Shown piece after piece: positions 26,525-41,646 of a DNA stretch of 41,646 nucleotides. The stretch covers positions 1 through 41,646 of the IMG/VR virus record IMGVR_UViG_2737471837_000010; one strand, written 5' to 3'. Position 1 is the stretch's first letter. Each line of letters begins with the position of its first letter. Both the position numbers and the translations under genes were made by a program. Below the pieces are notes generated by a model that did not search any database, was not told the origin of the DNA, and was given only the letters and a program-made list of their open reading frames with translations. Origin of the DNA: a virus (Duplodnaviria; Heunggongvirae; Uroviricota; Caudoviricetes).

Positions 26525-27361
26525 TCATTTCAAATTCAGCAGCTCTGAAAAACTATTAACAACATAATCAGGTCTAACATTGGAGAATGCTTTTCTAAGT
26601 TGTTCCTCCCTCTCCACATCTGCATCTTTCCAGTGTGTGATTTTCACTAAAACTTTCCACAATTCAGGTGAAAACTGTCGCCCATAATTAGCCCAAACAG
26701 CAGTAACCCCCACAGCTTTAGCCATGGACATATCTTTAGTTATAGAATCGCCAATGTATACCGCATCTTCAACACTAACTCCTTCAAAAGAACATATGTG
26801 CTCAAGCAATTTAGGGTTTGGCTTTGACTCAGCGCAGGACAATCTAATTACAAAGTCATCCTTCACAGGTATTTTTTTTGCATTTTTGGGATTCGGGTGG
26901 ATATTATGAATATCTTCTAATGTATAAAGATGATCAAAAAAATCAATTATACCAAGCTTATTCAGACGATATAAAGAATTAAACTCCAAAGCTTCAGTAT
27001 GCCCTACAATTTTTACCCCCCGTTTCTTCAATAATTCCAGCGTTTCTTTTACAGTAGGATACAACATTAATGTCTGGTTACGTTTTGTGCTAAACGCCTG
27101 AAAAACATTAGTAAGTTTTTCCTGCAAAATCGTTTTATCATTAGTTCCAAAGTAAGATATCACAGATGGTAGCTCTAAAGTAGCAAATGGTTTTTCTGAG
27201 TTACCAAACTTCTGATGAATTGTTTTATATTCTGACAGGAGCGTATCCAAAGGCACATCAATATCCTTAGATAATTGCTCTGCCATGGCACTAAATGACT
27301 GGGAGTAAAAACTCACCCAATCGTACAGTGTATTATCCAAATCAGTAATAAGTAATTTCAT
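26525..27361 (-). CDS. HAD-superfamily hydrolase (phosphatase-like)
   Basis: 278-aa ORF with HAD motif I (ITDLDNTLYDW, DxDxT) and a C-terminal YIGDSITKD motif. AT-rich. Its start overlaps the upstream stop (ATGA). Confidence 0.85.
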   Translation of the reverse strand: MKLLITDLDNTLYDWVSFYSQSFSAMAEQLSKDIDVPLDTLLSEYKTIHQKFGNSEKPFATLELPSVISYFGTNDKTILQEKLTNVFQAFSTKRNQTLMLYPTVKETLELLKKRGVKIVGHTEALEFNSLYRLNKLGIIDFFDHLYTLEDIHNIHPNPKNAKKIPVKDDFVIRLSCAESKPNPKLLEHICSFEGVSVEDAVYIGDSITKDMSMAKAVGVTAVWANYGRQFSPELWKVLVKITHWKDADVEREEQLRKAFSNVRPDYVVNSFSELLNLK

Positions 27362-29004
27362 AATAAACCTTCAACAATATAAGTAGCCGCCACTTTTTCT
27401 CCGCTCTGTTTATCAAGCTTGAAAAAATTAAAAGTTAGCTTTTCGCCAGAAAAATCCAGTACGCATGCATAGTTAGCACAATCCTGACTTGGCAATTCCG
27501 AACTAACAACTCCTGAACTTCCCAAAGAAACAATTTGGAATGTATGTTCAGGATTTGAATCCGTCACTGGTTCTAACGGAGATAGTTTTTTTGTTATTGT
27601 AATAAAACTACTTCTGTGCATATGACCATGCAGAATATAATCAACTTTATGCCTTACTACCCAACGTAATAATCGCTCTGCATCTAATGTTACACTATAT
27701 CTTGAATCAAGATAGGCATCTTCAACTTCATTAATAGAAGTTAGGTGATGGTGAAGCATAGCAATTCTTATAACACCTTTCTTTTTGAGTATATCTCCTC
27801 CGCTATCATTCATCCATCCCATAGATTTTGCAACATCACTGAGTTGTTGCTCACCGACAAATCCCATGCCCAAAAATGAATCTTTTACTTGTTGTAATAC
27901 GCATGAGTTCAATGCGGCTATTTCAACAACTTTATGGCCACCTAGTAAAAATTTCCTTCCTTGTGATAAATTTTCTTCAGGTTCCCTTTGAAAAAAATCT
28001 CGATAAAATTTTATATAATTAAGTTTACTTTCGCTATGGTAGTTTTCCGCCAGAATTTTCCATGGTTTATCCGTTACAGGCTTACCAACGATTTTAAAGT
28101 ACTCATCTTTAGAAACCAGACCTACATCGTGATTCCCAGGACAAATAATTATATCATCCGTTGTCAGACTAAGAGAAGAACTAACATCTTTGATAAAATT
28201 CAAAGCTTGCTCGAATCCCTCTTTCTGTGACTGCCACGTCAAATCACCTGAAATAGCCAACCCAGCACATTTACTCCCATTATTATATTTTCCAGCCAAC
28301 TCCACCACTCGAGAGGATAAACATTTTAGCTGATCATTATCTTGTGTCGGAAATGCATGTTTCCCATTTCCGCCATCAAAATGAATATCCGAAAGCCAAA
28401 TTATAAACTCCCCTTTTTTTTGGCTATACTTCCGACTGAAATTATAAGGAACATAATGAGATGCTAATGACTCATGCTGTAAATCTTTATCATTTGCAGG
28501 TCTAATCTTCCAAATAGTTCTATCTTGTTTTTTTAATTCAGCTGAAGAAAAGACAATTTTGTTGAAAAGTTGCTCATCTAAATCTTTATTACCTGCAAAC
28601 AATGCATCCAATGGAATATATGTGAATTTTTTGAGGATATCACAAGCATCAATTTCTATAATCTCAGAAACATTTAACCATCCCAGCAACTCATTCTCAT
28701 TATAATATGCTGGGGTTCTGCAACCATCCTTAGGAGATTGCTTTTTTATATCCCCTAAAGCTGACGAGCAAGTATCCTTTAATACAGCGGTATAAAATTT
28801 AAGCCGCCCTGAATCAAAAAAATATATTTGTTTATTTTTTTCTGCCGCATTTTTTAGTTCCAGTGATGGGAAACGCTCACCAGATTTAGCCCACCACCCC
28901 CACCAAACATTCCCTTCTTGGCGAGCAATGTTATTGTGTTGCTCGATGGTAAATCCTTCACTTTTTCCTAGGTCACGGAACCTAAAAATATAGGTTTCAC
29001 ACAT
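27358..29004 (-). CDS. Two-domain protein: unknown Trp-rich N-terminal domain (~190 aa) plus calcineurin-like metallophosphoesterase domain
   Basis: 548-aa ORF carrying metallophosphoesterase signature motifs in the expected order: LSDIHFD, ISGDLTW, CPGNHD, LHHH and HGHMHR. The N-terminal region (VWWGWWAKSG) has no motif I recognise. AT-rich. Confidence 0.8.
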   Translation of the reverse strand: MCETYIFRFRDLGKSEGFTIEQHNNIARQEGNVWWGWWAKSGERFPSLELKNAAEKNKQIYFFDSGRLKFYTAVLKDTCSSALGDIKKQSPKDGCRTPAYYNENELLGWLNVSEIIEIDACDILKKFTYIPLDALFAGNKDLDEQLFNKIVFSSAELKKQDRTIWKIRPANDKDLQHESLASHYVPYNFSRKYSQKKGEFIIWLSDIHFDGGNGKHAFPTQDNDQLKCLSSRVVELAGKYNNGSKCAGLAISGDLTWQSQKEGFEQALNFIKDVSSSLSLTTDDIIICPGNHDVGLVSKDEYFKIVGKPVTDKPWKILAENYHSESKLNYIKFYRDFFQREPEENLSQGRKFLLGGHKVVEIAALNSCVLQQVKDSFLGMGFVGEQQLSDVAKSMGWMNDSGGDILKKKGVIRIAMLHHHLTSINEVEDAYLDSRYSVTLDAERLLRWVVRHKVDYILHGHMHRSSFITITKKLSPLEPVTDSNPEHTFQIVSLGSSGVVSSELPSQDCANYACVLDFSGEKLTFNFFKLDKQSGEKVAATYIVEGLL

Positions 29005-29127: not shown

Positions 29128-29838
29128 TCATCCACTAAACCTTTTCCCTCTACATAATCCATGTTTAGCACGCAATTGTTTAATTTTTTCCAAGCTCTGA
29201 ACACGATTAAGCGGCCTGCCGCCCATGACAGGAAGTTGTTTCACCGGTTCAGGGATCGCTTCACCACGGTTAATTCGCGCGGTCATACAGGACAGTTCAT
29301 CGGCAGCCATGCGCCGTAATTCCGCGTCAGTCAACGCATTGGCCCGCATGTTCTGGTACAGGTTGGTAACCAGCCAGTAGTGCGCGTTTGATTTCCATGG
29401 ATAAGACTCTGCATCTGGATACAGGCCACGCTTCCGACAATACTCATAGACCATATCAACCAGCTCGCTGACGTTTGGCAGCCCGGCGTTAACGGATGCT
29501 TCTTCCCGGCACCAGGCGACAAACTGCCCGGGTGATGGCAGGAATGGTCGATTCTGCCGACGGGCTACGCGCATTCCAGCGTTAACCTGTTCCATCGTGG
29601 TGATCCCATTTTCCCGGAAAGCCAGAACCCACTGGCGGCGGATTTCGTTCAGTTCATTCTGGTCCCGGTTAGCCAGGCTCGCCGGGAAAGTTGCCAGTAA
29701 CTGGCTGAACACACCATTGATAATCTGCGCTACCTGCTGTACCTGCGGCTTTTCGTCGTACTGTTCCGGCATGTTATTGGCGATCCGGCGCATCTGCTCA
29801 CGGTCAAAATTAACCATCTGTGCGGCGATGTTTTTCAT
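29128..29838 (-). CDS. P: Replication protein P (DnaB helicase loader)
   Basis: 236-aa ORF MKNIAAQMVNFDREQMRRIANNMPEQYDEKPQVQQVAQIINGVF..., recognised as lambda P. Confidence 0.95.
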   Translation of the reverse strand: MKNIAAQMVNFDREQMRRIANNMPEQYDEKPQVQQVAQIINGVFSQLLATFPASLANRDQNELNEIRRQWVLAFRENGITTMEQVNAGMRVARRQNRPFLPSPGQFVAWCREEASVNAGLPNVSELVDMVYEYCRKRGLYPDAESYPWKSNAHYWLVTNLYQNMRANALTDAELRRMAADELSCMTARINRGEAIPEPVKQLPVMGGRPLNRVQSLEKIKQLRAKHGLCRGKRFSG

Positions 29839-30807
29839 AGCTCCACCCCGTAAATCCAGTCAGTGTTCGTCAGGTCGAGTTTTGGTTTTCCGGCTGTCAC
29901 GCCAGCCTGTTGCTTGTTACGGTTGATTTCGAGCTGGGTCCACTTGTCGCGTAGTTTGGCCGGACTCAGCACGTTACCGGACCAGAAGTTGTCCTGGCAG
30001 GCCCAGCGGAACAGCACGCACATGTCGCGGTGGTTACGTCCGTCACGTTCACGCATCAGGCGGATATCGTTAGCCCACCCTGCAAAATTCGGTTTTCTGG
30101 CTGATGGCGCGATGGTCTTCACCATGTCAAACATCCACTCTGCGGCAGTCAGGTCTTCTGCTGTCCCCCACTTGCTGCCGCTCTGAATCGCAGCATCCGG
30201 TTTCACCACAGAAAGGGCATTTTCTGGCTGGTCAGAGGATTCGTCAGAATTCTCGGACGAAAAAGGTTTTATATTGTCTTTTGTTAGTTTGTCTTTTGTG
30301 TTTACCTGATTCGGGTAAGTGCCTTTACCTGATTTGGGTAAACTTTTCTTACCTGATTCAGGTAAATTTACCTCTTTCAGGTAAACTTTTCTTACCTGAT
30401 TCAGGTAAATTTACCTCTTTCAGGTAAACTTTATTTTTCTTACCTGATTCGGGTAATGTTGACCATTCACTGACCACATTATTGATGCCGATATTCCGCC
30501 CGCTCTGAATAAGAATCCCACGCTTTACCAGAACACTTTTTGCAGCAGAACACTTGTGCGGCAATATCCCGGTTAATTCGGAAAGTTGCTCGTTGCTAAC
30601 CCAATCCAGTTTTTTATTAAAGCCATATGTTTTGCGCATGACAGCCAGAAAGACCAGAAGCTGGTGCTGTGTTAATCCGGCCAGCATCACAGCTTCCAGC
30701 AACTCATTTGCAATGCGCGTATAACCATCATCGAGATCTGCCACGCGCGGCTCCTTTTGTGCCGCATCCGGCACTGGAAAATTGAATATCTCAGCAGTGT
30801 TTGCCAT
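29835..30807 (-). pseudogene. O: Replication initiator O, split by a frameshift inside the iteron region
   Basis: The N-terminal frame (from MANTAEIFNF) stops at 30358. The C-terminal frame, open from ~30410 and ending ...TNTDWIYGVEL, is shifted by one nucleotide. Both frames translate the same LPESGKKSLP from repeated DNA. Confidence 0.7.
30302..30456. repeat. Replication origin iterons: seven ~17-bp TTACCTGATTC(G/A)GGTAA-type repeats, including a 43-bp tandem duplication
   Basis: Copies at ~30302, 30326, 30349, 30368, 30392, 30411 and 30440. Segment 30349..30391 is repeated almost exactly at 30392..30434. Each iteron is an inverted repeat TTACC...GGTAA. Confidence 0.85.
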
Positions 30808-30893
30808 AATTCCTCCCGCAATGAGTGTGTTACGATTTGCACCTGAAAGTCGGTTCTGTTCGCGCAGACCGGCTTTCGCCATTTCCGAACCTG

Positions 30894-31439
30894 TCATATT
30901 GCCCCCAGCATGGTGGTGACCATCGCCATCAGTGGACCAGCCAGATCCGGGTCCACACGAAACATCGACACAATGCCTTCACTCATCTCCTTCAGTTTCT
31001 GGTGGCGTGGTGCGTTGAGAATGACAGCCTGTTTTGCCTCACTGAGTTCCTTTTCCATTTCAGCCAGCCGAGCCATGAAGCTATCCTGCTCAACCAGGTG
31101 GCCGCGATATTCCAGCGGTAGTACCGCCAGAATTGCCGGGGTCAGTTCACGCACGTTATTTCGGTATTTTTCAGAATCGAATTTGTTATCGAGGAAGCGG
31201 AACAGCTTCTGGCGTGCACGGCTGACATCATCAGGGAAATCGATGGTGCCGCCGCCCTGCTCCCGATACTCATTCACAATGAGTGCGGCAACAACATCCT
31301 GATTATCTGCAGCCGACCAGGCGCGGACGGCATCACGGATTTTTTCGTGGCCTGGAGCTTGTTTTGTTTGAGAACGATTTATCACCGCAGTCGGGCTAAA
31401 TCCGCTAGTCTGTTGGTATGTAAGTGGTTGCATAGTCAT
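30894..31439 (-). CDS. YdaT-like protein in the cII position
   Basis: 181-aa ORF downstream of the cro-like gene; segments EYREQGGGT and LTPAILAVLPLEYRGHL resemble my recollection of Rac prophage YdaT. No clear helix-turn-helix. Confidence 0.55.
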   Translation of the reverse strand: MTMQPLTYQQTSGFSPTAVINRSQTKQAPGHEKIRDAVRAWSAADNQDVVAALIVNEYREQGGGTIDFPDDVSRARQKLFRFLDNKFDSEKYRNNVRELTPAILAVLPLEYRGHLVEQDSFMARLAEMEKELSEAKQAVILNAPRHQKLKEMSEGIVSMFRVDPDLAGPLMAMVTTMLGAI

Positions 31440-31697: not shown

Positions 31698-31801
31698 TTC
31701 CTATTGGTATTGCAATGAATGAATAATAGCAATGCGTATTAATCCAAGCAATAGCCAAACGTGTTTTGACCATCAATACGCAAGCGTATAAATTAAAACT
31801 T
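31698..31801. promoter_or_regulatory. Immunity control region: divergent pR (minus) and pRM-like (plus) promoters with operator repeats
   Basis: Minus strand: -35 TTGCTT, 17-nt spacer, -10 TATTAT (plus coordinates ~31746..31751 and ~31723..31728). Plus strand: -35 TTGACC at 31766..31771 and -10 TATAAAT at ~31787..31793, placing the start near the cI ATG at 31802. AATAGCAAT-type motifs recur here and at pL. Confidence 0.6.
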
Positions 31802-32494
31802 ATGAAAAAAGAAACTCTTGCTGATCGCTTAAACCTAGCGATGGAACAATCTGGAATGTCTCAAGGCGCTCTTGCAAAGGCGTCTGGCGTAGCTCAACCC
31901 ACAATCTGGAGACTGACAAGCGGCAACGCGCGCGGCTCAACAAAAATTGTTGAAATAGCTAATGCATTGGGTGTTCGAACAGAATGGCTCTCATCAGGCA
32001 TAGGCCCGATGAGAAATGACGGTCAACAATCAGGGAAGCCTGCTGTCAGCCATTCCAAATACTTCAAAATTGACGTTCTTGATATAGAAGTCAGTGCCGG
32101 GCCGGGAGTCATCAACCGTGAGTTTGTAGAAGTTCTACGCTCGGTTGAGTACTCGTTTGACGATGCTCGTCACATGTTCGATGGCAGGAAGGCAGAAAAT
32201 ATCCGCATCATTAACGTGCGTGGTGACAGCATGTCAGGAACGATCGAACCAGGTGATCTGCTGTTCGTTGATATCACGGTTAAATCTTTCGACGGTGATG
32301 GTATCTATGCATTTCTGTACGACGACACCGCCCATGTAAAGCGCCTGCAAATGATGAAGGATAAACTGCTGGTTATCTCTGATAACAAGAGCTACTCACC
32401 GTGGGACCCTATCGAGAAAGACGAGATGAACCGGGTGTTTATCTTCGGGAAAGTTATTGGGAGCATGCCGCAGACCTACAGGAAGCATGGGTAG
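31802..32494 (+). CDS. cI: Prophage repressor cI (HTH plus S24 LexA-like autopeptidase domain); ATG at 31802 preferred over the ORF track's TTG at 31766
   Basis: N-terminal HTH (LADRLNLAMEQSGMSQGALAKASGVAQPTIWR), Ala-Gly cleavage site (EVSAGPG) and Ser/Lys dyad motifs (GDSMSG ... HVKRL). The TTG at 31766 coincides with the -35 hexamer. Confidence 0.85.
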   Translation: MKKETLADRLNLAMEQSGMSQGALAKASGVAQPTIWRLTSGNARGSTKIVEIANALGVRTEWLSSGIGPMRNDGQQSGKPAVSHSKYFKIDVLDIEVSAGPGVINREFVEVLRSVEYSFDDARHMFDGRKAENIRIINVRGDSMSGTIEPGDLLFVDITVKSFDGDGIYAFLYDDTAHVKRLQMMKDKLLVISDNKSYSPWDPIEKDEMNRVFIFGKVIGSMPQTYRKHG

Positions 32495-32616: not shown

Positions 32617-33639
32617 ATGAAAGATAACAGACAAAAAGTCGTTCATTATAAAAAAGCAGTAATCCCACACAGCAAATCATCATTACAAAACATACTACTT
32701 AGTATTATAGGTGAGGGCGGCGTTGCAGAAAAAGTACTTAGTAGACAAGAAAAAATAACACCTTCAGATGAAAATTCGGGGTATCGTTTCTTAAATAAAA
32801 GCGACACATACAAAACTATACTTTTTGGGCAACTGGTTTTATTTGAAAAAGACAAAAGCCAGTCTCTATTAGAGCTTAGTGATAATGTTAAATTTTATGA
32901 CATTAACTCCATCACGTCTAATGATATAATTATTGATGGAGATAAACGTAGTGACAAAAAAAGAGAGTTTGTAGATTCAATTTTATATTTTGGTGTACTA
33001 AACAACCATGTCATGATCGTTCAATCCACATCGCTTCGAGCAAGGGAGCTTGAGGCGCATTTGAATTGGCTAATTAATACATTCACAGATGAAAAAGAAT
33101 CTGTGTTAATGCTTCAAGATAAGCCATCCGAAGAAACGATGAAAAAAATGGAGAAAGCACCAGCCAAGAGCATAAAAATTGGTGGATTACCCATTACTTC
33201 AGAAGTTAAAAATTCAGAGAACCAAACACCCTCCTTTTCAAATGGTTCGGTGAAGACAATAAAATACCGCCCAATAGGGAAAGGAGGTGCGCTACTAAAA
33301 GCATTTTTTGGCGATAACTGGGCAAATGATATAAACATTAAAGATTCATTAGATGAGGCCAATTTACAAGTAAGCCTCGAGATTACATACTTCAGAAAAA
33401 CAAATGATAGCGGTCAAGCTGTTATAGACAGTATTGCTACCTCACTACGACATCTAGATGAGGATGATATTAGCATCAAACTTCAAGGCGGTGGGGAAAT
33501 AACGGGAAAAGAGATAAAATTATCCGGAAAAATTAGCGTTGAACATAACAATGGCATTATTGATGAAAATGATTTATTCTTAAAAATGCATAAGTGGCTG
33601 TTCTCAAAACTTGATGCCGGAGAATTGGTTGCAAAATAA
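32617..33639 (+). CDS. Unknown 340-aa soluble protein in the rexA position
   Basis: Long AT-rich ORF immediately downstream of cI on the same strand; Lys/Asp/Glu-rich with no catalytic motif I recognise. Confidence 0.75.
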   Translation: MKDNRQKVVHYKKAVIPHSKSSLQNILLSIIGEGGVAEKVLSRQEKITPSDENSGYRFLNKSDTYKTILFGQLVLFEKDKSQSLLELSDNVKFYDINSITSNDIIIDGDKRSDKKREFVDSILYFGVLNNHVMIVQSTSLRARELEAHLNWLINTFTDEKESVLMLQDKPSEETMKKMEKAPAKSIKIGGLPITSEVKNSENQTPSFSNGSVKTIKYRPIGKGGALLKAFFGDNWANDINIKDSLDEANLQVSLEITYFRKTNDSGQAVIDSIATSLRHLDEDDISIKLQGGGEITGKEIKLSGKISVEHNNGIIDENDLFLKMHKWLFSKLDAGELVAK

Positions 33640-33660
33640 CCTACCAAAAGGAGGGCGATA

Positions 33661-34167
33661 ATGAAATCGAACATCATCCACCTTATTGGTATGTTGGTCT
33701 TCTATGTTGCTGGTTACTTTTTGTTCAAGTCAGCATTGGGCTATATTACACCGGGTGTTGTCCTAACAGCTCCGTGGGCTGTGGTTGGACTCATGCAATT
33801 GCCATTATCATATTGTATACAAGCCATTTTTAAGGCAAATGAGGCCAATGACCACTCGTCTTTAACCCCTAGTGAGGTTAGGCGATTAGTGCCAATAGTC
33901 AAATCCAAGAGACTGAAATTGGTTTTATTATTAGCTTTCTATGTATTTTCAACTTTGTTTGTAATCTTGGGGTTAATAGCAAGCACAAATGATCAAGCCC
34001 TACTCTTCAGGGTCTTAAAAATTTCAGGTGGATTACTCTTTATTTCTCTCTATACCAGTGTATTCGTTCATAAAATAATGGTTGAGCTTCAAGAGTTTAA
34101 AGCGTTATTAAACCGAAGAGAATCAGAGAAGAAGGAAAGAGAGTCACTCCTTGATAGATTAAAATGA
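33661..34167 (+). CDS. Unknown 168-aa polytopic membrane protein (four predicted TM helices) in the rexB position
   Basis: Strong AGGAGGG ribosome-binding site. Four hydrophobic segments (IIHLIGMLVFYVAGYFLF, VVLTAPWAVVGLMQLPLSYCIQAIF, LKLVLLLAFYVFSTLFVILGLIAS, GGLLFISLYTSVFVHKIM) and a charged C-terminal tail. Confidence 0.8.
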   Translation: MKSNIIHLIGMLVFYVAGYFLFKSALGYITPGVVLTAPWAVVGLMQLPLSYCIQAIFKANEANDHSSLTPSEVRRLVPIVKSKRLKLVLLLAFYVFSTLFVILGLIASTNDQALLFRVLKISGGLLFISLYTSVFVHKIMVELQEFKALLNRRESEKKERESLLDRLK

Positions 34168-34174
34168 CCCCCCT

Positions 34175-34202
34175 CCCCGGCCGTCGTGCCGGGTTTTCTT
34201 TT
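34175..34202 (+). terminator. Rho-independent terminator closing the cI/rex-slot transcription unit
   Basis: Hairpin CCCCGGC-CGTCGT-GCCGGG followed by TTTTCTTTT, starting 8 nt after the stop of the membrane-protein gene. Confidence 0.7.
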
Positions 34203-34319
34203 GCCTCCCCTCATCACACACCGTTCAAAAAACCACCATGCCCCTGCTTCAGTTATCGCTATGCGATGCAAGTCACAAAATTAATTCTTTTTGCTATCAA
34301 ACATTTAATATCAAAACAC

Positions 34320-34380
34320 ATCAGCCAATAGCAATAAGTATTGATATCACCAATAGCAATAGCTATTATCATCATATCGC
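34320..34380 (+). promoter_or_regulatory. pL-like promoter with overlapping operator repeats
   Basis: -35 TTGATA (34341..34346), 17-nt spacer, -10 TATTAT (34364..34369). Operator-like repeats CCAATAGCAATAAGTATTG and CCAATAGCAATAGCTATT overlap the promoter. Confidence 0.6.
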
Positions 34381-34562
34381 AACAACACAACGATACGGCA
34401 ACCACCTGATTCACCGTTGCGATGACCGCTTAGATCCGTAGCTTGAATTTCAGCAGGCTCCGGGAAGTGCGAGGGGTGAAGCGGACGCGTGAACGTCGGT
34501 GTGACCAGCTGAAATTAACTCAACATTTCATACCTCAGTCGCTTCAACGAGGCGGCTTAGTT

Positions 34563-34853
34563 ATGACAACCGGCGGCCATCCACCGCCTGAATACGCGCA
34601 GAAGTCTTTATATGTTCAGCAGCCCAGCTTACGGGCAGGAGTTTTTATGGTTCATCAACATTACGGAACGCAGACCGTTAATCGCGGTGCGGTCATGCCA
34701 GGAATGCTGGTCAAACACAAAGATGGTACCTGGACAGCATCAGCTAATTTACGCGGACGGCTATATCTGCATCGCGGCATCGAGCGCACTTATACCCGTG
34801 ATTTGCTCGTGGAAGTTTTTCTCGACGGACGAGGCAACGGCCTGAATCACTAA
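34563..34853 (+). CDS. Hypothetical protein in the N / kil-cIII position; the ORF track extends the frame to a TTG at 34443
   Basis: 96 aa from the ATG preceded by GAGG; the extended frame contains an arginine-rich stretch (GVKRTRERR). No recognisable lambda N, kil or cIII sequence. Confidence 0.5.
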   Translation: MTTGGHPPPEYAQKSLYVQQPSLRAGVFMVHQHYGTQTVNRGAVMPGMLVKHKDGTWTASANLRGRLYLHRGIERTYTRDLLVEVFLDGRGNGLNH

Positions 34854-34928
34854 TCCCCTTTCCTGTTTTCCTAATCAGCCTGGCATTTCGCGGGCGATAT
34901 TTTCACAGCCATTTTCAGGAGTTCAGCC

Positions 34929-35225
34929 ATGAACGCTTATTACATTCAGGATCGTCTTGAGGCTCAGAGCTGGGCGCGTCACTACCAGCAGATTGCCCGT
35001 GAAGAGAAAGAGGCAGAACTGGCAGACGACATGGAAAAAGGTCTTCCACAGCACCTGTTTGAATCACTCTGCATCGATCATTTGCAACGCCACGGGGCCA
35101 GCAAAAAAGCCATTACCCGTGCATTTGATGACGATGTTGAGTTTCAGGAGCGCATGGCAGAACACATCCGGTACATGGTTGAAACCATTGCTCACCATCA
35201 GGTTGATATTGATTCAGAGGTATAA
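34929..35225 (+). CDS. gam: Gam (RecBCD inhibitor), short 98-aa form only
   Basis: [47 protein letters not shown]..., recognised as lambda Gam. The upstream in-frame extension is closed by a TAA 19 codons before the ATG. Confidence 0.9.
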
Positions 35226-35230
35226 AACGG

Positions 35231-36016
35231 ATGAGTACAGCACTCGCAACGCTGGCTGGGAAGCTGGCTGAACGTGTCGGCATGGATTCTGTCGACCCAC
35301 AGGAACTGATCACCACTCTTCGCCAGACGGCATTTAAAGGTGATGCCAGCGATGCGCAGTTCATCGCATTGTTGATCGTCGCCAACCAGTACGGCCTTAA
35401 TCCGTGGACGAAAGAAATTTACGCCTTCCCTGATAAGCAGAACGGCATCGTTCCGGTGGTGGGCGTTGATGGCTGGTCCCGCATCATCAATGAAAACCAG
35501 CAGTTTGATGGCATGGACTTTGAGCAGGACAATGAATCCTGTACATGCCGGATTTACCGCAAGGACCGTAATCATCCGATCTGCGTTACCGAGTGGATGG
35601 ATGAATGCCGCCGCGAACCATTCAAAACCCGCGAAGGCAGAGAAATCACGGGGCCGTGGCAGTCGCATCCCAAACGGATGTTACGGCATAAAGCCATGAT
35701 TCAGTGTGCCCGTCTCGCCTTCGGATTTGCGGGTATCTATGACAAGGATGAAGCCGAGCGCATTGTCGAAAATACCGCATACACTGCAGAACGTCAGCCG
35801 GAACGCGACATCACTCCGGTTAACGATGAAACCATGCAGGAGATTAACACTCTGCTGATCGCCCTGGATAAAACATGGGATGACGACTTATTGCCGCTCT
35901 GTTCCCAGATATTTCGCCGCGACATTCGCGCATCGTCAGAACTGACACAGGCCGAAGCAGTGAAAGCTCTTGGATTCCTGAAACAGAAAGCCACTGAGCA
36001 GAAGGTGGCATCATGA
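35231..36016 (+). CDS. bet: Bet (Red-beta single-strand annealing protein)
   Basis: 261-aa [47 protein letters not shown]..., recognised as lambda Bet. Confidence 0.95.
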
Positions 36017-36693
36017 CACCGGACATTATCCTGCAGCGTACCGGGATCGACGTGAGAGCTGTCGAACAGGGGGATGATGCATGGCACAAATTACGGCTCG
36101 GCGTCATCACCGCTTCAGAAGTTCACAACGTGATAGCAAAGCCCCGCTCAGGAAAGAAGTGGCCTGACATGAAAATGTCCTACTTCCACACCCTGCTGGC
36201 TGAGGTTTGCACCGGTGTGGCTCCGGAAGTTAATGCTAAGGCGCTGGCCTGGGGAAAACAGTACGAGAACGACGCCAGAGCCCTGTTTGAGTTTACTTCC
36301 GGCGTGAATGTTACTGAATCCCCGATCATCTATCGCGACGAAAGTATGCGTACCGCCTGCTCTCCGGATGGTTTATGCAGTGACGGCAACGGCCTTGAGC
36401 TGAAATGCCCGTTTACCTCCCGGGATTTCATGAAGTTCCGGCTCGGTGGTTTCGAGGCCATAAAGTCGGCTTACATGGCCCAGGTGCAGTACAGCATGTG
36501 GGTGACGCGAAAAGATGCCTGGTACTTTGCCAACTATGACCCGCGTATGAAGCGTGAAGGCCTGCATTATGTCGTGATTGAGCGGAATGAAAAGTACATG
36601 GCGAATTTTGACGAGATGGTGCCGGAGTTCATCGAAAAAATGGACGTGGCACTGGCTGAAATTGGTTTTGTATTTGGGGAGCAATGGCGATGA
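36013..36693 (+). CDS. exo: Exo (Red-alpha 5'-3' exonuclease)
   Basis: 226-aa [47 protein letters not shown]..., recognised as lambda Exo. Confidence 0.95.
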
Positions 36694-36872
36694 AGCATCC
36701 TCACGATAATATCCGGGTAGGCGCGATCACTTTCGTCTACTCCGTTACAAAGCGAGGCTGGGTATTTCCCGGCCTTCCTGTTATCCGAAATCCCCTGAAA
36801 GCACATCGGCTGGCTGAGGAGATAAATAATAAACGAGGGGCTGTATGCACAAAGCATCTCCTGTTGAGTTAA
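36684..36872 (+). CDS. Lambda exo-xis region small ORF (orf60a-like)
   Basis: 62-aa ORF whose start overlaps the exo stop; position and size match the first of the lambda exo-xis small ORFs. Confidence 0.6.
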
Positions 36873-37036
36873 GAACGAGCATTGAGATGGCACATAGCCT
36901 TGCTCAAATTGGAGTCAAGTTTGTGCCAATACCAGTAGAAACAGACGAAGAATTTCATACGTTAGCCGCATCCCTTTCACAAAAGCTGGAAATGATGGTG
37001 GCGAAAGCAGAAGCAGATGAGAGAGACCAGGTATGA
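36845..37036 (+). CDS. Lambda exo-xis region small ORF (orf63-like)
   Basis: 63-aa ORF overlapping its neighbours, in the expected position. Confidence 0.6.
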   Translation: MHKASPVELRTSIEMAHSLAQIGVKFVPIPVETDEEFHTLAASLSQKLEMMVAKAEADERDQV

Positions 37037-37112
37037 CAACCACGGAATGCATTTTTCTGGCAGCGGGCTTCATATTTTGTGTGCTTATGCTTGCCGACAT
37101 GGGACTTGTTCA

Positions 37113-37328
37113 ATGACACCTCAGCAAGAAAACGCCCTTCGCAGCATTGCCCGTCTGGCTAACTCTGAAATCAAAAAAGCCAGACAGCAGTTTCCGGATA
37201 AAAACGTCGATGACATTTGCCGTAGCGTACTGAAGAAGCACCGCGAAACGGTAACGCTGATGGGATTCACACCGACTCATTTAAGTCTGGCGATCGGCAT
37301 GTTAAACGGCGTCTTTAAGGAGCGATGA
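37113..37328 (+). CDS. Lambda exo-xis region small ORF (orf61-like); start at MTPQQENAL
   Basis: Open frame MTPQQENALRSIARLANSEIKKARQQFPDKNVDD...; the ORF track's longer upstream extension is probably not translated. Confidence 0.55.
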   Translation: MTPQQENALRSIARLANSEIKKARQQFPDKNVDDICRSVLKKHRETVTLMGFTPTHLSLAIGMLNGVFKER

Positions 37329-37426
37329 ACATGAAAAGCAAAATCATCAGGGAGCTACAGGCTCCTTTTTTATTGTTCGCATTCACCCTCAAGCGTATTA
37401 ACCAACAATTCAGGGATTAATGGAAG

Positions 37427-37648
37427 ATGGCAGACATCATTGATTCAGCATCAGAAATTGAAGAATTACAGCGCAACACAGCAATAAAAATGCGCCGCCT
37501 GAACCACCAGGCTATATCTGCCACTCATTGTTGTGAGTGTGGCGATCCGATAGATGAACGAAGACGCCTGGTCGTTCAGGGTTGTCGGACTTGTGCAAGT
37601 TGCCAGGAAGATCTGGAGCTTATCAGTAAACAGAGAGGTTCGAAGTGA
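37427..37648 (+). CDS. TraR/DksA-family C4 zinc-finger protein (lambda orf73-like)
   Basis: 73-aa ORF with CxxC(17)CxxC (CCECGDPIDERRRLVVQGCRTCASCQ). Confidence 0.75.
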   Translation: MADIIDSASEIEELQRNTAIKMRRLNHQAISATHCCECGDPIDERRRLVVQGCRTCASCQEDLELISKQRGSK

Positions 37649-38193
37649 GTGAAATTAACTCTCAGGCACTGCGTGAAGCGGCAGAGCAGGCAATGCATGA
37701 CGACTGGGGATTTGACGCAGACCTTTTCCATGAATTGGTAACACCATCGATTGTGCTGGAACTGCTGGATGAACGGGAAAGAAACCAGCAATACATCAAA
37801 CGCCGCGACCAGGAGAACGAGGATATTGCGCTAACAGTAGGGAAACTGCGTGTTGAGCTTGAAACAGCAAAATCAAAACTCAACGAGCAGCGTGAGTATT
37901 ACGAAGGTGTTATCTCGGATGGGAGTAAGCGTATTGCTAAACTGGAAAGCAACGAAGTCCGTGAAGACGGAAACCAGTTTCTTGTTGTTCGCCATCCTGG
38001 GAAGACTCCTGTTATCAAGCACTGCACTGGTGACCTGGAAGAGTTTCTGCGGCAGTTAATCGAACAAGACCCGTTAGTAACTATCGACATCATTACGCAT
38101 CGCTATTACGGGGTTGGAGGTCAATGGGTTCAGGATGCAGGTGAGTATCTGCATATGATGTCTGACGCTGGCATTCGCATCAAAGGAGAGTGA
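37645..38193 (+). CDS. ea22: Ea22-like protein
   Basis: 182-aa ORF with an acidic N-terminus and central coiled-coil; size and position match lambda ea22. Confidence 0.75.
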   Translation: MSEINSQALREAAEQAMHDDWGFDADLFHELVTPSIVLELLDERERNQQYIKRRDQENEDIALTVGKLRVELETAKSKLNEQREYYEGVISDGSKRIAKLESNEVREDGNQFLVVRHPGKTPVIKHCTGDLEEFLRQLIEQDPLVTIDIITHRYYGVGGQWVQDAGEYLHMMSDAGIRIKGE

Positions 38194-38384
38194 GATCGGT
38201 TTTGTAAAAGATAACGCTTGTGAAAATGCTGAATTTCGCGTCGTCTTCACAGCGATGCCAGAGTCTGTAGTGTCAGATGATGACCGTACTCAAACATCGG
38301 GTTGAGTATTATCTTACTGTTTCTTTACATAAACATTGCTGATACCGTTTAGCTGAAACGACATATATTGCAAGGAGTTTATAA

Positions 38385-38666
38385 ATGAGTATCAATGAGT
38401 TAGAGTCTGAGCAAAAAGATTGGGCGTTATCAATGTTGTGCAGATCCGGTGTCTTGTCTCCATGCAGACATCACGAAGGTGTTTATGTAGATGAAGGTAT
38501 AGATATAGAGTCGGCATACAAATATTCCATGAAGGTTTATAAGTCTAATGAAGACAAATCCCCATTCTGCAATGTGCGTGAAATGACTGATACCGTGCAA
38601 AATTATTATCACGAGTACGGTGGAAACGATACTTGCCCTCTCTGTACAAAACATATAGATGATTAA
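38385..38666 (+). CDS. ea8.5: Ea8.5-like Cys-rich protein
   Basis: 93-aa ORF with a Cys/His cluster (CRHHEG ... CPLCTKH); size and position match lambda ea8.5. Confidence 0.75.
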   Translation: MSINELESEQKDWALSMLCRSGVLSPCRHHEGVYVDEGIDIESAYKYSMKVYKSNEDKSPFCNVREMTDTVQNYYHEYGGNDTCPLCTKHIDD

Positions 38667-38754
38667 ACCCAATATTACATAACAATCCTCGCACTCGCGG
38701 GGATTTATTTTATCTGAACTCGCTACGGCGGGTTTTGTTTTATGGAGATGGTAA

Positions 38755-38922
38755 ATGCACTTCCGAGTCACAGGAGAATGGAATGGAGAGCCATTCAACA
38801 GAGTTATCGAAGCGGAGAACATCAACGACTGCTACGACCACTGGATGATATGGGCGCAGATAGCACATGCAGACGTAACCAATATTCGAATTGAAGAACT
38901 GAAAGAACACCAAGCCGCCTGA
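38755..38922 (+). CDS. Lambda orf55-like small protein
   Basis: Hand-translated 55-codon frame MHFRVTGEWNGEPFNRVIEAENINDCYDHWMIWAQIAHADVTNIRIEELKEHQAA; below the ORF track's size cutoff. Confidence 0.6.
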   Translation: MHFRVTGEWNGEPFNRVIEAENINDCYDHWMIWAQIAHADVTNIRIEELKEHQAA

Positions 38923-38934
38923 TGGCGGTTTTTT
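38913..38934 (+). terminator. Rho-independent terminator after the orf55-like gene
   Basis: Hairpin GCCGCC-TGAT-GGCGG followed by TTTTTTCTT. Confidence 0.6.
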
Positions 38935-38961
38935 CTTGCGTGTAATTGCGGAGACTTTGCG

Positions 38962-39180
38962 ATGTACTTGACACTTCAGGAGTGGAACGCACGCCAGCGA
39001 CGTCCAAGAAGCCTTGAAACAGTTCGTCGATGGGTTCGGGAATGCAGGATATTCCCACCTCCGGTTAAGGATGGAAGAGAGTATCTGTTCCACGAATCAG
39101 CGGTAAAGGTTGACTTAAATCGACCAGTAACAGGTAGCCTTTTGAAGAGGATCAGAAATGGGAAGAAGGCGAAGTCATGA
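38962..39180 (+). CDS. xis: Excisionase Xis
   Basis: 72-aa ORF MYLTLQEWNARQRRPRSLETVRRWVRECRIFPPPVKDGREYLFHESAVKV..., recognised as lambda Xis. Confidence 0.95.
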   Translation: MYLTLQEWNARQRRPRSLETVRRWVRECRIFPPPVKDGREYLFHESAVKVDLNRPVTGSLLKRIRNGKKAKS

Positions 39181-40228
39181 GCGCCGGGATTTACCCCCTA
39201 ACCTTTATATAAGAAACAATGGATATTACTGCTACAGGGACCCAAGGACGGGTAAAGAGTTTGGATTAGGCAGAGACAGGCGAATCGCAATCACTGAAGC
39301 TATACAGGCCAACATTGAGTTATTTTCAGGACACAAACACAAGCCTCTGACAGCGAGAATCAACAGTGATAATTCCGTTACGTTACATTCATGGCTTGAT
39401 CGCTACGAAAAAATCCTGGCCAGCAGAGGAATCAAGCAGAAGACACTCATAAATTACATGAGCAAAATTAAAGCAATAAGGAGGGGTCTGCCTGATGCTC
39501 CACTTGAAGACATCACCACAAAAGAAATTGCGGCAATGCTCAATGGATACATAGACGAGGGCAAGGCGGCGTCAGCCAAGTTAATCAGATCAACACTGAG
39601 CGATGCATTCCGAGAGGCAATAGCTGAAGGCCATATAACAACAAACCCTGTCGCTGCCACTCGCGCAGCAAAATCAGAGGTAAGGAGATCAAGACTTACG
39701 GCTGACGAATACCTGAAAATTTATCAAGCAGCAGAATCATCACCATGTTGGCTCAGACTTGCAATGGAACTGGCTGTTGTTACCGGGCAACGAGTTGGTG
39801 ATTTATGCGAAATGAAGTGGTCTGATATCGTAGATGGATATCTTTATGTCGAGCAAAGCAAAACAGGCGTAAAAATTGCCATCCCAACAGCATTGCATGT
39901 TGATGCTCTCGGAATATCAATGAAGGAAACACTTGATAAATGCAAAGAGATTCTTGGCGGAGAAACCATAATTGCATCTACTCGTCGCGAACCGCTTTCA
40001 TCCGGCACAGTATCAAGGTATTTTATGCGCGCACGAAAAGCATCAGGTCTTTCCTTCGAAGGGGATCCGCCTACCTTTCACGAGTTGCGCAGTTTGTCTG
40101 CAAGACTCTATGAGAAGCAGATAAGCGATAAGTTTGCTCAACATCTTCTCGGGCATAAGTCGGACACCATGGCATCACAGTATCGTGATGACAGAGGCAG
40201 GGAGTGGGACAAAATTGAAATCAAATAA
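39158..40228 (+). CDS. int: Tyrosine integrase Int
   Basis: 356-aa ORF MGRRRSHERRDLPPNLYIRNNGYYCYRDPRTGKEFGLGRDRRIAITEAIQANIELF..., recognised as lambda Int; its start overlaps the xis 3' end. Confidence 0.95.
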   Translation: MGRRRSHERRDLPPNLYIRNNGYYCYRDPRTGKEFGLGRDRRIAITEAIQANIELFSGHKHKPLTARINSDNSVTLHSWLDRYEKILASRGIKQKTLINYMSKIKAIRRGLPDAPLEDITTKEIAAMLNGYIDEGKAASAKLIRSTLSDAFREAIAEGHITTNPVAATRAAKSEVRRSRLTADEYLKIYQAAESSPCWLRLAMELAVVTGQRVGDLCEMKWSDIVDGYLYVEQSKTGVKIAIPTALHVDALGISMKETLDKCKEILGGETIIASTRREPLSSGTVSRYFMRARKASGLSFEGDPPTFHELRSLSARLYEKQISDKFAQHLLGHKSDTMASQYRDDRGREWDKIEIK

Positions 40229-40316
40229 TGATTTTATTTTGACTGATAGTGACCTGTTCGTTGCAACAAATTGATAAGCAATGCTTTTTTATAATGCCAA
40301 CTTAGTATAAAAAAGC
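40229..40316. other. attL: attL: lambda P' arm plus 15-bp core (TTAGTATAAAAAAGC at 40302..40316) joined to host attB sequence
   Basis: The reverse complement of the core is GCTTTTTTATACTAA. The phage-side sequence reads as the lambda P' arm (AAGTTGGCATTATAAAAAAGCATTGCTTATCAATTTGTTGCAACGAACAGG); the host side GAATCCGTTGAAGCCT matches the remembered attB flank. Confidence 0.85.
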
Positions 40317-40362: not shown

Positions 40363-41646
40363 GTGAACACATTTTCAGTTTCCCGTCTGGCGCTGGCATT
40401 GGCTTTTGGCGTGACGCTGACCGCCTGTAGCTCAACCCCGCCCGATCAACGTCCTTCTGATCAAACCGCGCCTGGTACCTCTTCTCGCCCGATTCTGTCG
40501 GCAAAAGAAGCGCAGAATTTCGATGCTCAACACTATTTTGCATCCCTGACACCAGGTGCTGCAGCGTGGAATCCTTCCCCGATTACCCTGCCTGCGCAAC
40601 CTGAATTTGTTGTCGGCCCGGCGGGCACTCAAGGTGTAACGCATACCACGATTCAGGCGGCGGTAGATGCGGCAATTATCAAGCGTACCAACAAGCGCCA
40701 GTATATTGCCGTGATGCCTGGTGAGTATCAGGGAACGGTATATGTCCCTGCCGCTCCGGGTGGAATTACTCTGTACGGTACAGGTGAAAAACCGATTGAT
40801 GTGAAGATTGGGCTTTCCCTTGATGGTGGCATGAGCCCTACCGACTGGCGTCACGACGTCAACCCGCGCGGCAAATATATGCCAGGTAAACCAGCGTGGT
40901 ATATGTACGATAGCTGCCAGAGCAAACGCAGCGACAGTATCGGTGTTCTCTGCTCTGCGGTCTTCTGGTCACAAAACAATGGCCTGCAACTGCAAAATCT
41001 GACCATCGAAAACACGCTGGGCGATAGCGTAGATGCAGGTAACCATCCGGCGGTGGCACTGCGTACTGATGGTGACCAGGTACAGATTAACAACGTTAAC
41101 ATTCTCGGTCGTCAGAACACCTTCTTTGTCACCAACAGCGGTGTGCAGAACCGTCTGGAAACCAACCGTCAGCCGCGTACGCTGGTGACCAACAGCTATA
41201 TTGAAGGGGATGTGGATATCGTTTCTGGTCGCGGCGCAGTGGTGTTCGATAACACCGAATTCCGCGTGGTGAACTCACGTACTCAGCAAGAAGCGTATGT
41301 GTTTGCACCGGCTACGCTGTCCAACATCTATTACGGTTTCCTCGCCGTAAACAGCCGTTTCAATGCTTCCGGTGATGGCGTGGCACAACTGGGCCGCTCG
41401 CTGGATGTTGATGCCAATACCAACGGTCAGGTGGTGATCCGTGATAGCGCCATCAACGAAGGTTTTAACACGGTTAAACCGTGGGGCGATGCGGTGATTT
41501 CCAATCGTCCATTTGCGGGTAATACCGGCAGCGTTGACGATAGCGACGAAATACAGCGCAATCTGAATGACACTAACTACAACCGCATGTGGGAATACAA
41601 TAATCGCGGCGTGGGTAGCAAAGTGGTTGCAGAGGCGAAGAAGTAA
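40363..41646 (+). CDS. ybhC: Host chromosomal gene ybhC: outer-membrane lipoprotein with pectinesterase-like / acyl-CoA thioesterase fold
   Basis: 427-aa ORF with a lipoprotein signal (LALAFGVTLTAC); recognised as YbhC, the gene next to attB-lambda on the gal side. GC content is host-like. Confidence 0.85.
   Translation: MNTFSVSRLALALAFGVTLTACSSTPPDQRPSDQTAPGTSSRPILSAKEAQNFDAQHYFASLTPGAAAWNPSPITLPAQPEFVVGPAGTQGVTHTTIQAAVDAAIIKRTNKRQYIAVMPGEYQGTVYVPAAPGGITLYGTGEKPIDVKIGLSLDGGMSPTDWRHDVNPRGKYMPGKPAWYMYDSCQSKRSDSIGVLCSAVFWSQNNGLQLQNLTIENTLGDSVDAGNHPAVALRTDGDQVQINNVNILGRQNTFFVTNSGVQNRLETNRQPRTLVTNSYIEGDVDIVSGRGAVVFDNTEFRVVNSRTQQEAYVFAPATLSNIYYGFLAVNSRFNASGDGVAQLGRSLDVDANTNGQVVIRDSAINEGFNTVKPWGDAVISNRPFAGNTGSVDDSDEIQRNLNDTNYNRMWEYNNRGVGSKVVAEAKK

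Follow-up and report, generated by a model that had tools for sequence, protein, structure and literature searches.

An early-left control region without N in a lambdoid prophage, with a constrained leader and a covarying RNA module ahead of a KilR-type kil

Introduction

We consider the early-left control region of a lambdoid prophage in a 41,646-nucleotide (nt) stretch of viral DNA (IMG/VR record IMGVR_UViG_2737471837_000010, positions 1 to 41,646; hereafter the window), together with the described systems that come closest to it. In lambda, the leftward promoter is followed by the series pL-nutL-N-tL1-sieB-ral-ea10-cIII-kil-gam. HK022 and HK639 are lambdoid phages without N that have a non-coding RNA element (put) directly downstream of pL. 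The early-left operons of the Rac prophage and of phi80 encode, before the recombination genes, a Kil protein of 73 residues, much the same size as the one in the window (68 residues). KilR of Rac is an inhibitor of FtsZ that disturbs MreB as well, and its expression is kept low by NusG-dependent termination (PMC5793797, PMC12482147); when OxyS represses NusG, transcription reads through into Rac and kilR expression rises (PMC5793797).

In the window, a terminator, the leftward operators and promoter (OL/pL) and one long open reading frame (ORF) ahead of gam are packed into about 730 bp (34203-34928). pL and the start of gam lie about 0.55 kb apart, compared with about 2.35 kb in lambda, whose early-left interval is about 1.8 kb longer; N, nutL, tL1, sieB, ral, ea10 and cIII of the lambda series are missing. 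The explanation that best accounts for the whole, and that we consider fairly probable, is that the interval is the whole early-left control region, in compact form, of a lambdoid prophage without N, in which an early region of the Perceval/4A7 type (Bievrevirus-like) is joined to the gam-int block of lambda, at att-lambda. The prophage is among the commonest lambda-like types in E. coli, and its early-left operon has no N, nut, put or tL1 yet retains lambda terminators before xis-int. It is therefore a natural test case for how much of the lambda N circuitry is dispensable and whether another mechanism of read-through exists.

Layout of the early-left interval

Read from the repressor operon into the recombination genes, the interval and its flanks contain the following features:

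31766-32494 (+): cI
32617-33639 and 33661-34167 (+): two genes without assigned function at the place of rexA/rexB
34176-34203 (+): intrinsic terminator CCCGGCCGTCGTGCCGGG with a T run (hairpin 34176-34193), closing the operon of cI and the genes for 340 and 168 amino acids
34325-34374 (+): OL operators overlapping pL, a 25-nt direct repeat
34341-34346 and 34364-34369 (+): -35 element TTGATA and -10 element TATTAT of pL, a strong sigma-70 promoter with a 17-nt spacer (promoter scan)
34377-34525 (+): pL-proximal untranslated leader (the 5' leader), family-specific and non-coding
34526-34646 (+): kil-leader ("post-tL1") RNA module, common to other phages and with covariation
34647-34853 (+): kil, 68 amino acids, stop codon included (phrog_294, NF008465)
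34854-34928 (+): kil-gam intergenic region, lambda-derived, carrying a weakened lambda hairpin at 34878-34895
34929-35225 (+): gam, 98 amino acids (Pfam Gam, E 3e-65), heading the lambda-identical block, with bet and exo next

The order of repressor-operon terminator, OL/pL and leftward genes is that of lambda, in which the terminator after rexB occupies the position of the terminator at 34176. Among viral contigs, 80 encode an identical Kil; the 79 loci that were fetched share positions 34176-34928 at 88.7-99.9% identity, and the block of homology common to them begins exactly at this terminator.

The operator repeat AATAGCAATNNNTATT occurs exactly at 34327-34342 and 34352-34367 and once more at the rightward operators (OR, 31725). 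Allowing up to two mismatches, the motif has 13 matches in the window, where 1.25 would be expected by chance. These counts at OL and OR make the pL/OL assignment sound, and the locus shows what is characteristic of a lambdoid OL/pL, a sigma-70 promoter under repeated operators that recur at OR. Transcription from pL would start at about 34376-34377. The OL/pL segment is the most variable part of the interval among the relatives (nucleotide diversity, pi, 0.23), as expected for an immunity determinant. The immunity genes differ from those of lambda as well, with a different repressor, a Cro and a YdaT-domain "cII-like" protein.

An earlier note on this DNA had described a compact pL region with a good pL-like promoter, operators and a single ORF before gam, and had recognised no N, cIII, ral or sieB. 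All of this stands. With tblastn over the whole window, lambda N, phi80 N, HK022 Nun, cIII, Ral, SieB, Ea10 and lambda Kil find nothing (all E > 0.06); for the N/Nun queries, a set that does not include the N proteins of P22 and phage 21, E is above 1.9.

Downstream of the interval, window positions 34847-40316 correspond to lambda 33193-27724 at 98.5% identity. This block holds gam, bet, exo, orf60a/63/61, ea22, ea8.5, orf55, xis, int and the attP core, and the join of the mosaic lies in the final 7 bases of kil (34847-34853). Past the attP core lies a host gene, a YbhC-like pectinesterase (40363-41646); from the attP core followed by this gene we conclude that the hybrid prophage is integrated at att-lambda.

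Identity and start of kil

The same note took the ORF to be unknown and saw no recognisable kil, and here the result is different. The last 68 codons belong to the KilR family. They match phrog_294 ("Kil protein for bacterial septation inhibition") with E about 1e-38 to 1e-37, residues 1-68 aligning with profile positions 13-80 of 83, and Rac KilR and phi80 Kil fall in phrog_294 too. BLASTP against Rac KilR gives 36% identity over 61 residues (E 9e-13). The match to NCBIfam NF008465 ("FtsZ inhibitor protein", PRK11354) has 60.9 bits (E 8.7e-17) and stays below the curated cutoff of 92 bits; on this score the window Kil is placed, by sequence, as a homologue outside the narrowly defined Rac KilR subfamily, in a diverged subfamily. 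Conserved residues shared with Rac KilR and phi80 Kil include H5, G7, T8, R13, V16, P18, G19, H24, T28, S32, A33 and Y40. RefSeq lists an identical protein of 68 amino acids as WP_000233576.1 ("phage encoded cell division inhibitor protein"), from a genome with a leader that is likewise 100% identical.

The start of kil is given by the same comparisons. The KilR match begins at Met 34647, preceded by the Shine-Dalgarno sequence AGGAG at 34637-34641, and the homologue in HK225 begins at the equivalent Met, behind a separate stop codon and Shine-Dalgarno sequence. Lambda kil is of another kind, a 47-residue protein (phrog_3924) that is unrelated to the KilR type: BLASTP gives no alignment with the window Kil at E <= 100, tblastn gives chance matches only, and there is no Pfam match. 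This is why no kil had been recognised.

As a protein the window Kil is ordinary, a new member of a known family that was annotated earlier in relatives of the Bievrevirus type, as 68, 96 or 139 amino acids depending on the annotator. By homology to Rac KilR, it would be an FtsZ inhibitor that causes filamentation. The window shares with Rac and phi80 the early-left slot of the gene ahead of the recombination genes. Unlike in those systems, kil is the first gene after pL, and the region upstream of Rac kilR (kilS small RNA, sieB, ydaF/G) is unrelated in sequence to that of the window.

The frame upstream of kil

The earlier note gave two longer readings of the ORF, one from a TTG at 34443 (136 amino acids) and one from an ATG at 34563 (96 amino acids), both ending at 34853. 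Several lines of evidence are at odds with them. In the alignment of relatives, the variable columns in 34443-34562 are spread over the codon positions as 10/6/6, with no periodicity. Frameshifting insertions or deletions (1 nt, 5 nt) occur in relatives after 34472, after 34514 and at 34446, and 19 of 69 distinct relatives have a T at 34536 that gives an in-frame TAG. As for the ATG at 34563, it falls within one strand of a covarying hairpin (H1, below). Together with the stop codon in HK225, and in keeping with the 68 residues of the RefSeq protein, these observations make both extensions, as far as sequence comparison can tell, non-coding over-extensions of kil.

This bears on the idea of a diverged N-type antiterminator, encoded by the ORF or by its arginine-rich N-terminal extension. 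The stretch KRTRERR (at about 34479-34499, within the extension from TTG to ATG) superficially resembles the arginine-rich motifs of N proteins, and its place next to pL is that of N. The frame has no Shine-Dalgarno sequence and no credible start codon upstream, however, and it is broken in relatives, so that KRTRERR lies in the untranslated leader. Profile searches of the window proteins give no match of the ORF to N, Nun or Q, and no N/Nun homologue with a translated arginine-rich motif was found. There is no nut site either: the note found no convincing boxA or boxB, and inspection by eye agrees, with a weak boxA-like CGCTTAGA and a 4-bp hairpin GACG-CGUGAA-CGUC as the closest candidates in the leader; no leader segment recurs in the window, as a boxA and boxB repeated in the pR operon would. 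For the conserved part of the ORF, an N-type identity is refuted by the homology to KilR. We give the N-type explanation almost no credence.

The pL-proximal leader

The 5' leader (34377-34525) is non-coding, family-specific and widespread. A search of 5426 complete E. coli genomes has matches in 2210 (41%), and among the 40 matches listed none has a gene annotated under it. Its nucleotide diversity is 0.0265, with 17% of sites variable; the four-fold degenerate sites of kil, gam and bet, taken from the same sequences, reach 0.077 and 48% (Mann-Whitney p = 1e-9). The leader is thus about three times less diverse than synonymous sites, from which we conclude that it is under purifying selection.

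What the leader resembles is less easily said. Local alignment with the leaders of phi80, HK225, HK639, lambda and BHUENT6, and with the "M3-like RNA" of HK639, is no better than with shuffled sequence, and an nhmmer profile of the leader has no match in 22 Kil loci of other Enterobacteriaceae genera. Repeat search and blastn-short find no second copy of any leader segment in the window that could be an analogue of nutR or putR, only chance 9-12-mers. The folding energy is ordinary (z = -0.6). By inspection of 36 distinct leader copies, no compensatory pairs are seen at candidate helices, only one-sided or disruptive changes, the copies being too similar for a real test of structure.

Two small RNAs were considered and set aside. 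One, svsR of NC-SV-like prophages, is located at the 3' end of cI and has nothing to do with the present region; the other, kilS of Rac, lies in a region upstream of kilR that has no sequence relation to that of the window. At the very 5' end, the pL transcripts of phi80 and HK639 open with an identical AUCGAAACGAAACAUCGA, and at the start of the window transcript (34376-34395) there is a small hairpin that resembles it, AUCG-CAACAACACAA-CGAU; the pL transcripts may have a 5'-terminal stem-loop in common, possibly for RNA stability.

The RNA module ahead of kil

Between the 5' leader and kil lies a module (pi 0.0186) with three conserved elements:

34529-34542 paired with 34552-34565 (+): hairpin H1, including the ATG at 34563, with covariation
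34572-34588 (+): hairpin H2, GGCGG-CCAUCCA-CCGCC, almost invariant
34596-34608 (+): third conserved motif, GCGCAGAAGTCTT / GCGCAGAAGUCUU

The module is common to phi80, HK639, HK225, the Enterobacter phages BHUENT6 and CobraSix, the Klebsiella phage KO-TP1 and the P22-like Salmonella phage S9-5. Of the 12 pairs of H1, 7 show compensatory changes; for H1 and H2 together 97% of cells are paired, and none of 500 shuffles reaches the observed covariation score. The segment 34530-34595 folds with z = -2.6. From phage to phage the spacers between the motifs change in length without keeping to steps of three, each of the three frames is used for the third motif in one phage or another, and CobraSix shifts frame across H2. 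The module is therefore conserved at the level of RNA. Rfam has no match to it (33000-36000 at E <= 10, the whole window at the gathering threshold).

In all seven other phages an intrinsic terminator stands directly 5' of the module, that is of CAUACC. It is tL1A in the phi80 record and an annotated terminator in that of HK639. In the window its hairpin and U run are missing. HK639 thus shares with the window the module and a KilR-type kil, and differs in keeping tL1-type terminators ahead of the module.

What could such a module do? We suggest that H1/H2 tunes the expression of the toxic kil through translation, RNA stability or Rho loading. The module is an RNA supported by covariation, upstream of kil and outside Rfam, that may control a toxic gene. 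A more specific explanation, unrelated to processive antitermination, is that the leader, and the H1/H2 module above all, is an attenuator that limits kil, either as a Rho-dependent terminator or rut site (possibly with a short upstream ORF, MTTGGHPPP...) or as a switch of translation or RNA stability. The position agrees with this, since the module precedes kil, or small ORFs and then kil, in eight phages, and about 120 nt beyond the module the annotation of phi80 has a rho-dependent terminator, tL1B. The invariant AUG is buried in H1, the GG(H/Y)PP frame is kept in 7 of the 8 phages, and the rise of Rac kilR when OxyS represses NusG (PMC5793797) is a precedent. Against this, conservation at the RNA level, with three frames and the CobraSix shift, makes a mechanism based on the upstream ORF doubtful; the H2 motif is found in only 2 of 22 Kil loci of other genera, so that it is no general requirement of Kil; and a strong attenuator before gam-bet-exo would be costly in a phage without N. 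We regard the attenuator as a tentative possibility, below even chances.

Transcription from pL and the route to xis-int

Returning to the reading of the interval as a complete N-less control region, we propose the following course of events. Once the repressor is lost, RNA polymerase from pL would run through kil-gam-bet-exo without an antitermination factor, and Kil would transiently block cell division as Rac KilR does. The structured leader, H1/H2 in particular, would adjust the expression of the toxic kil at the level of translation, RNA stability or Rho loading. Genes past the lambda-type terminators (37349, 38684-38745, 38912), xis and int included, would be reached by partial read-through or by a further function, for which the constrained 150 nt of the 5' leader are the only candidate identified.

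The proximal part of this course is the simpler one. A terminator scan finds no strong intrinsic terminator between pL and the end of exo, only weak candidates. The loss of tL1 alongside the loss or replacement of N and nutL would leave kil and the Red genes to be transcribed directly from pL; as far as intrinsic terminators go, kil-gam-bet-exo would need no antitermination. The hairpin in the kil-gam spacer (34878-34895, GCCCGGC..GCGGGC with a T-rich tail) is a weakened copy of a lambda hairpin. Its perfect lambda stem is present in 6 of the 79 N-less loci and weakened in the other 73, at several independent positions, which is compatible with the decay of a terminator that is no longer antiterminated. 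In the rightward direction, the scan finds no convincing intrinsic terminator in the pR operon before Q, so that by this measure the right operon needs no N. In 4A7, a fully annotated relative, the sole antiterminator annotated is of the Q type.

The distal part of the operon carries several terminator-like structures:

36754-36786 (+): hairpin GAGGCTGGGTATTTCCCGGCCTT in the orf60a homologue; the same in lambda at about 31.27 kb, with one T-to-C change in the tail in the window
37349-37377 (+): terminator-like hairpin and U tract, GGAGCTACAGGCTCC TTTTTT, past the orf61 homologue; unchanged between the window, lambda, 4A7 and Perceval
38684-38745 (+): two terminator-like hairpins in tandem behind the ea8.5 homologue; lambda has this pair too
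38912-38941 (+): strong hairpin and U tract, AAGCCGCCTGATGGCGGTTT TTTCTTG, over the stop of the orf55 homologue and 20 nt upstream of xis; as in lambda

The first of these we take to be, probably, tL3. Transcription can reach xis-int in one of three ways: by leaking past four or more lambda terminator-like sites, from a promoter of their own, or with the help of a so far unrecognised antitermination function. No separate promoter for xis-int was found. The question that the earlier note raised, how transcription from pL reaches gam-bet-exo-xis-int, thus falls away for gam-bet-exo as far as intrinsic terminators are concerned, with no strong one in the path, and keeps its force for the distal xis-int, where the lambda terminators are retained in the 98.5% block.

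To look for an antiterminator RNA of the HK022 type, seven put RNAs (HK022 putL and putR, HK639, CobraSix, S9-5, phiEt88 and UPF_BP1) were combined into a covariance model. Rfam has no put model, and HK022 and HK639 themselves give no Rfam match, so Rfam is uninformative on put. Our model returns HK639 putL, the positive control, at 90.5 bits; in the window, Perceval and 4A7 the best hit has 10.2 bits (E 0.19) and falls in a coding region, and no hit lies in the leader. These scores exclude a put element of the HK022 type. With HK022 and HK639 the window shares the position, a non-coding element (34377-34525) right after pL in a lambdoid without N, and has neither the put sequence or structure nor a second element in the right operon.

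The 5' leader could still be a new cis-acting antiterminator RNA, an analogue of put unrelated in sequence, that lets polymerase pass the lambda-type terminators to xis-int. It would be the third class in lambdoid phages after nut/N and put, and an N-less prophage in about 40% of complete E. coli genomes would thereby pass lambda tL-type terminators to express xis and int. The leader does sit where nutL (lambda, phi80) or putL (HK022, HK639) is found, and it combines a lack of coding function with the threefold lower variability described above. The downstream terminators, which N overcomes in lambda, are kept, with Q as the only protein antiterminator present, and one element in the left operon would suffice, the pR operon having no good intrinsic terminator. 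On the other side stand the negative put search, a folding energy like that of shuffled sequence, the lack of compensatory substitutions among the 36 copies, similar as these are, and of a second copy in the right operon; moreover, the conservation could equally serve the regulation of kil. That the leader serves to control the toxic kil, by way of Rho, translation or RNA stability, is no less probable than a part in antitermination, and we judge the antiterminator RNA to be unlikely.

Relatives and weighing of the N-less plan

The block of terminator, pL, leader, kil and gam is found at 91-97% identity in Perceval, 4A7, Lambda_4C10, PhiR30_1, 1W/3W and IdasGreatGrand (Bievrevirus and relatives), whose operators, "rex-position" genes and int/xis modules vary. 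Perceval has been reported as an active prophage (PMC9928086), and 4A7, PhiR30_1 and others that share the region are deposited as phage genome records. From these we conclude that the N-less architecture is functional in nature. In a small sample of the literature on such prophages and in the GenBank records inspected, we found no comment on the missing N or on the leader. The early-left plan without N and tL1, with its constrained leader and covarying module, is a variant of the lambdoid plan.

Could the region instead be a non-functional deletion scar in a decaying prophage? Two observations would fit. The junction at the module looks like a deletion of half of tL1, its remnant ACCAGC.G being shared with the loop and 3' arm of the phi80 terminator, and gene O of this copy is frameshifted by an insertion in the iterons. 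Phage records, the active Perceval and 41% of complete E. coli genomes have the same architecture, however, and purifying selection acts on the leader. We consider a scar very improbable.

Some points do weigh against the N-less control region as we read it. The first 66 nt of the leader are C-rich (22 C, 13 G) and the untranslated stretch is about 270 nt long, which should invite Rho-dependent termination. Conservation of the leader could partly reflect the recent spread of one module and not selection, yet synonymous sites vary three times more. The lambda terminators kept directly upstream of xis argue for antitermination or an alternative promoter, and neither was found. The transcription start, the levels of read-through and the activity of Kil are all deduced from sequence. 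Finally, this copy may be replication-defective, or its O gene may reflect an assembly error in repeats: O is split (29835-30897, - strand), residues 1-177 and 156-339 of 4A7 O aligning in different frames, and the cause is a 43-nt insertion in the iteron array (30297-30456).

Neighbouring genes

The two genes in the rexA/rexB slot (32617-34167, + strand) encode a protein of 340 amino acids (phrog_3482) and a hydrophobic, membrane-like one of 168 amino acids (phrog_16807), the Perceval homologue of which is annotated as "transmembrane protein". Neither has a Pfam or PADLOC match. Relatives have different genes here, in 4A7 an ASCH-domain pair, and the site looks like a swappable slot for lysogen-expressed morons or exclusion genes.

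On the other side of the repressor, the gene called "CII-like" in relatives (30894-31439, - strand) carries the Pfam domain YdaT_toxin, which indicates that the immunity region is arranged as racR-ydaS-ydaT in Rac and not as cI-cro-cII in lambda. The gap of 24 bp between cro and this gene has no room for nutR or tR1. The "M3-like RNA" of the HK639 record follows closely behind the YdaT-type cII-like gene of the right operon, a place where the window leaves no space between genes.

Between P and ninB (26525-29004, - strand) there is an insert of two genes, the first for a protein of 548 amino acids with PUA-like and metallophosphoesterase domains and the second for a HAD-family hydrolase. The hydrolase matches PADLOC PDLC03008 (E 4e-57), which makes the insert a candidate defence system. 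Next comes an AT-rich gap, about 540 bp long, that contains several promoter-like sites.

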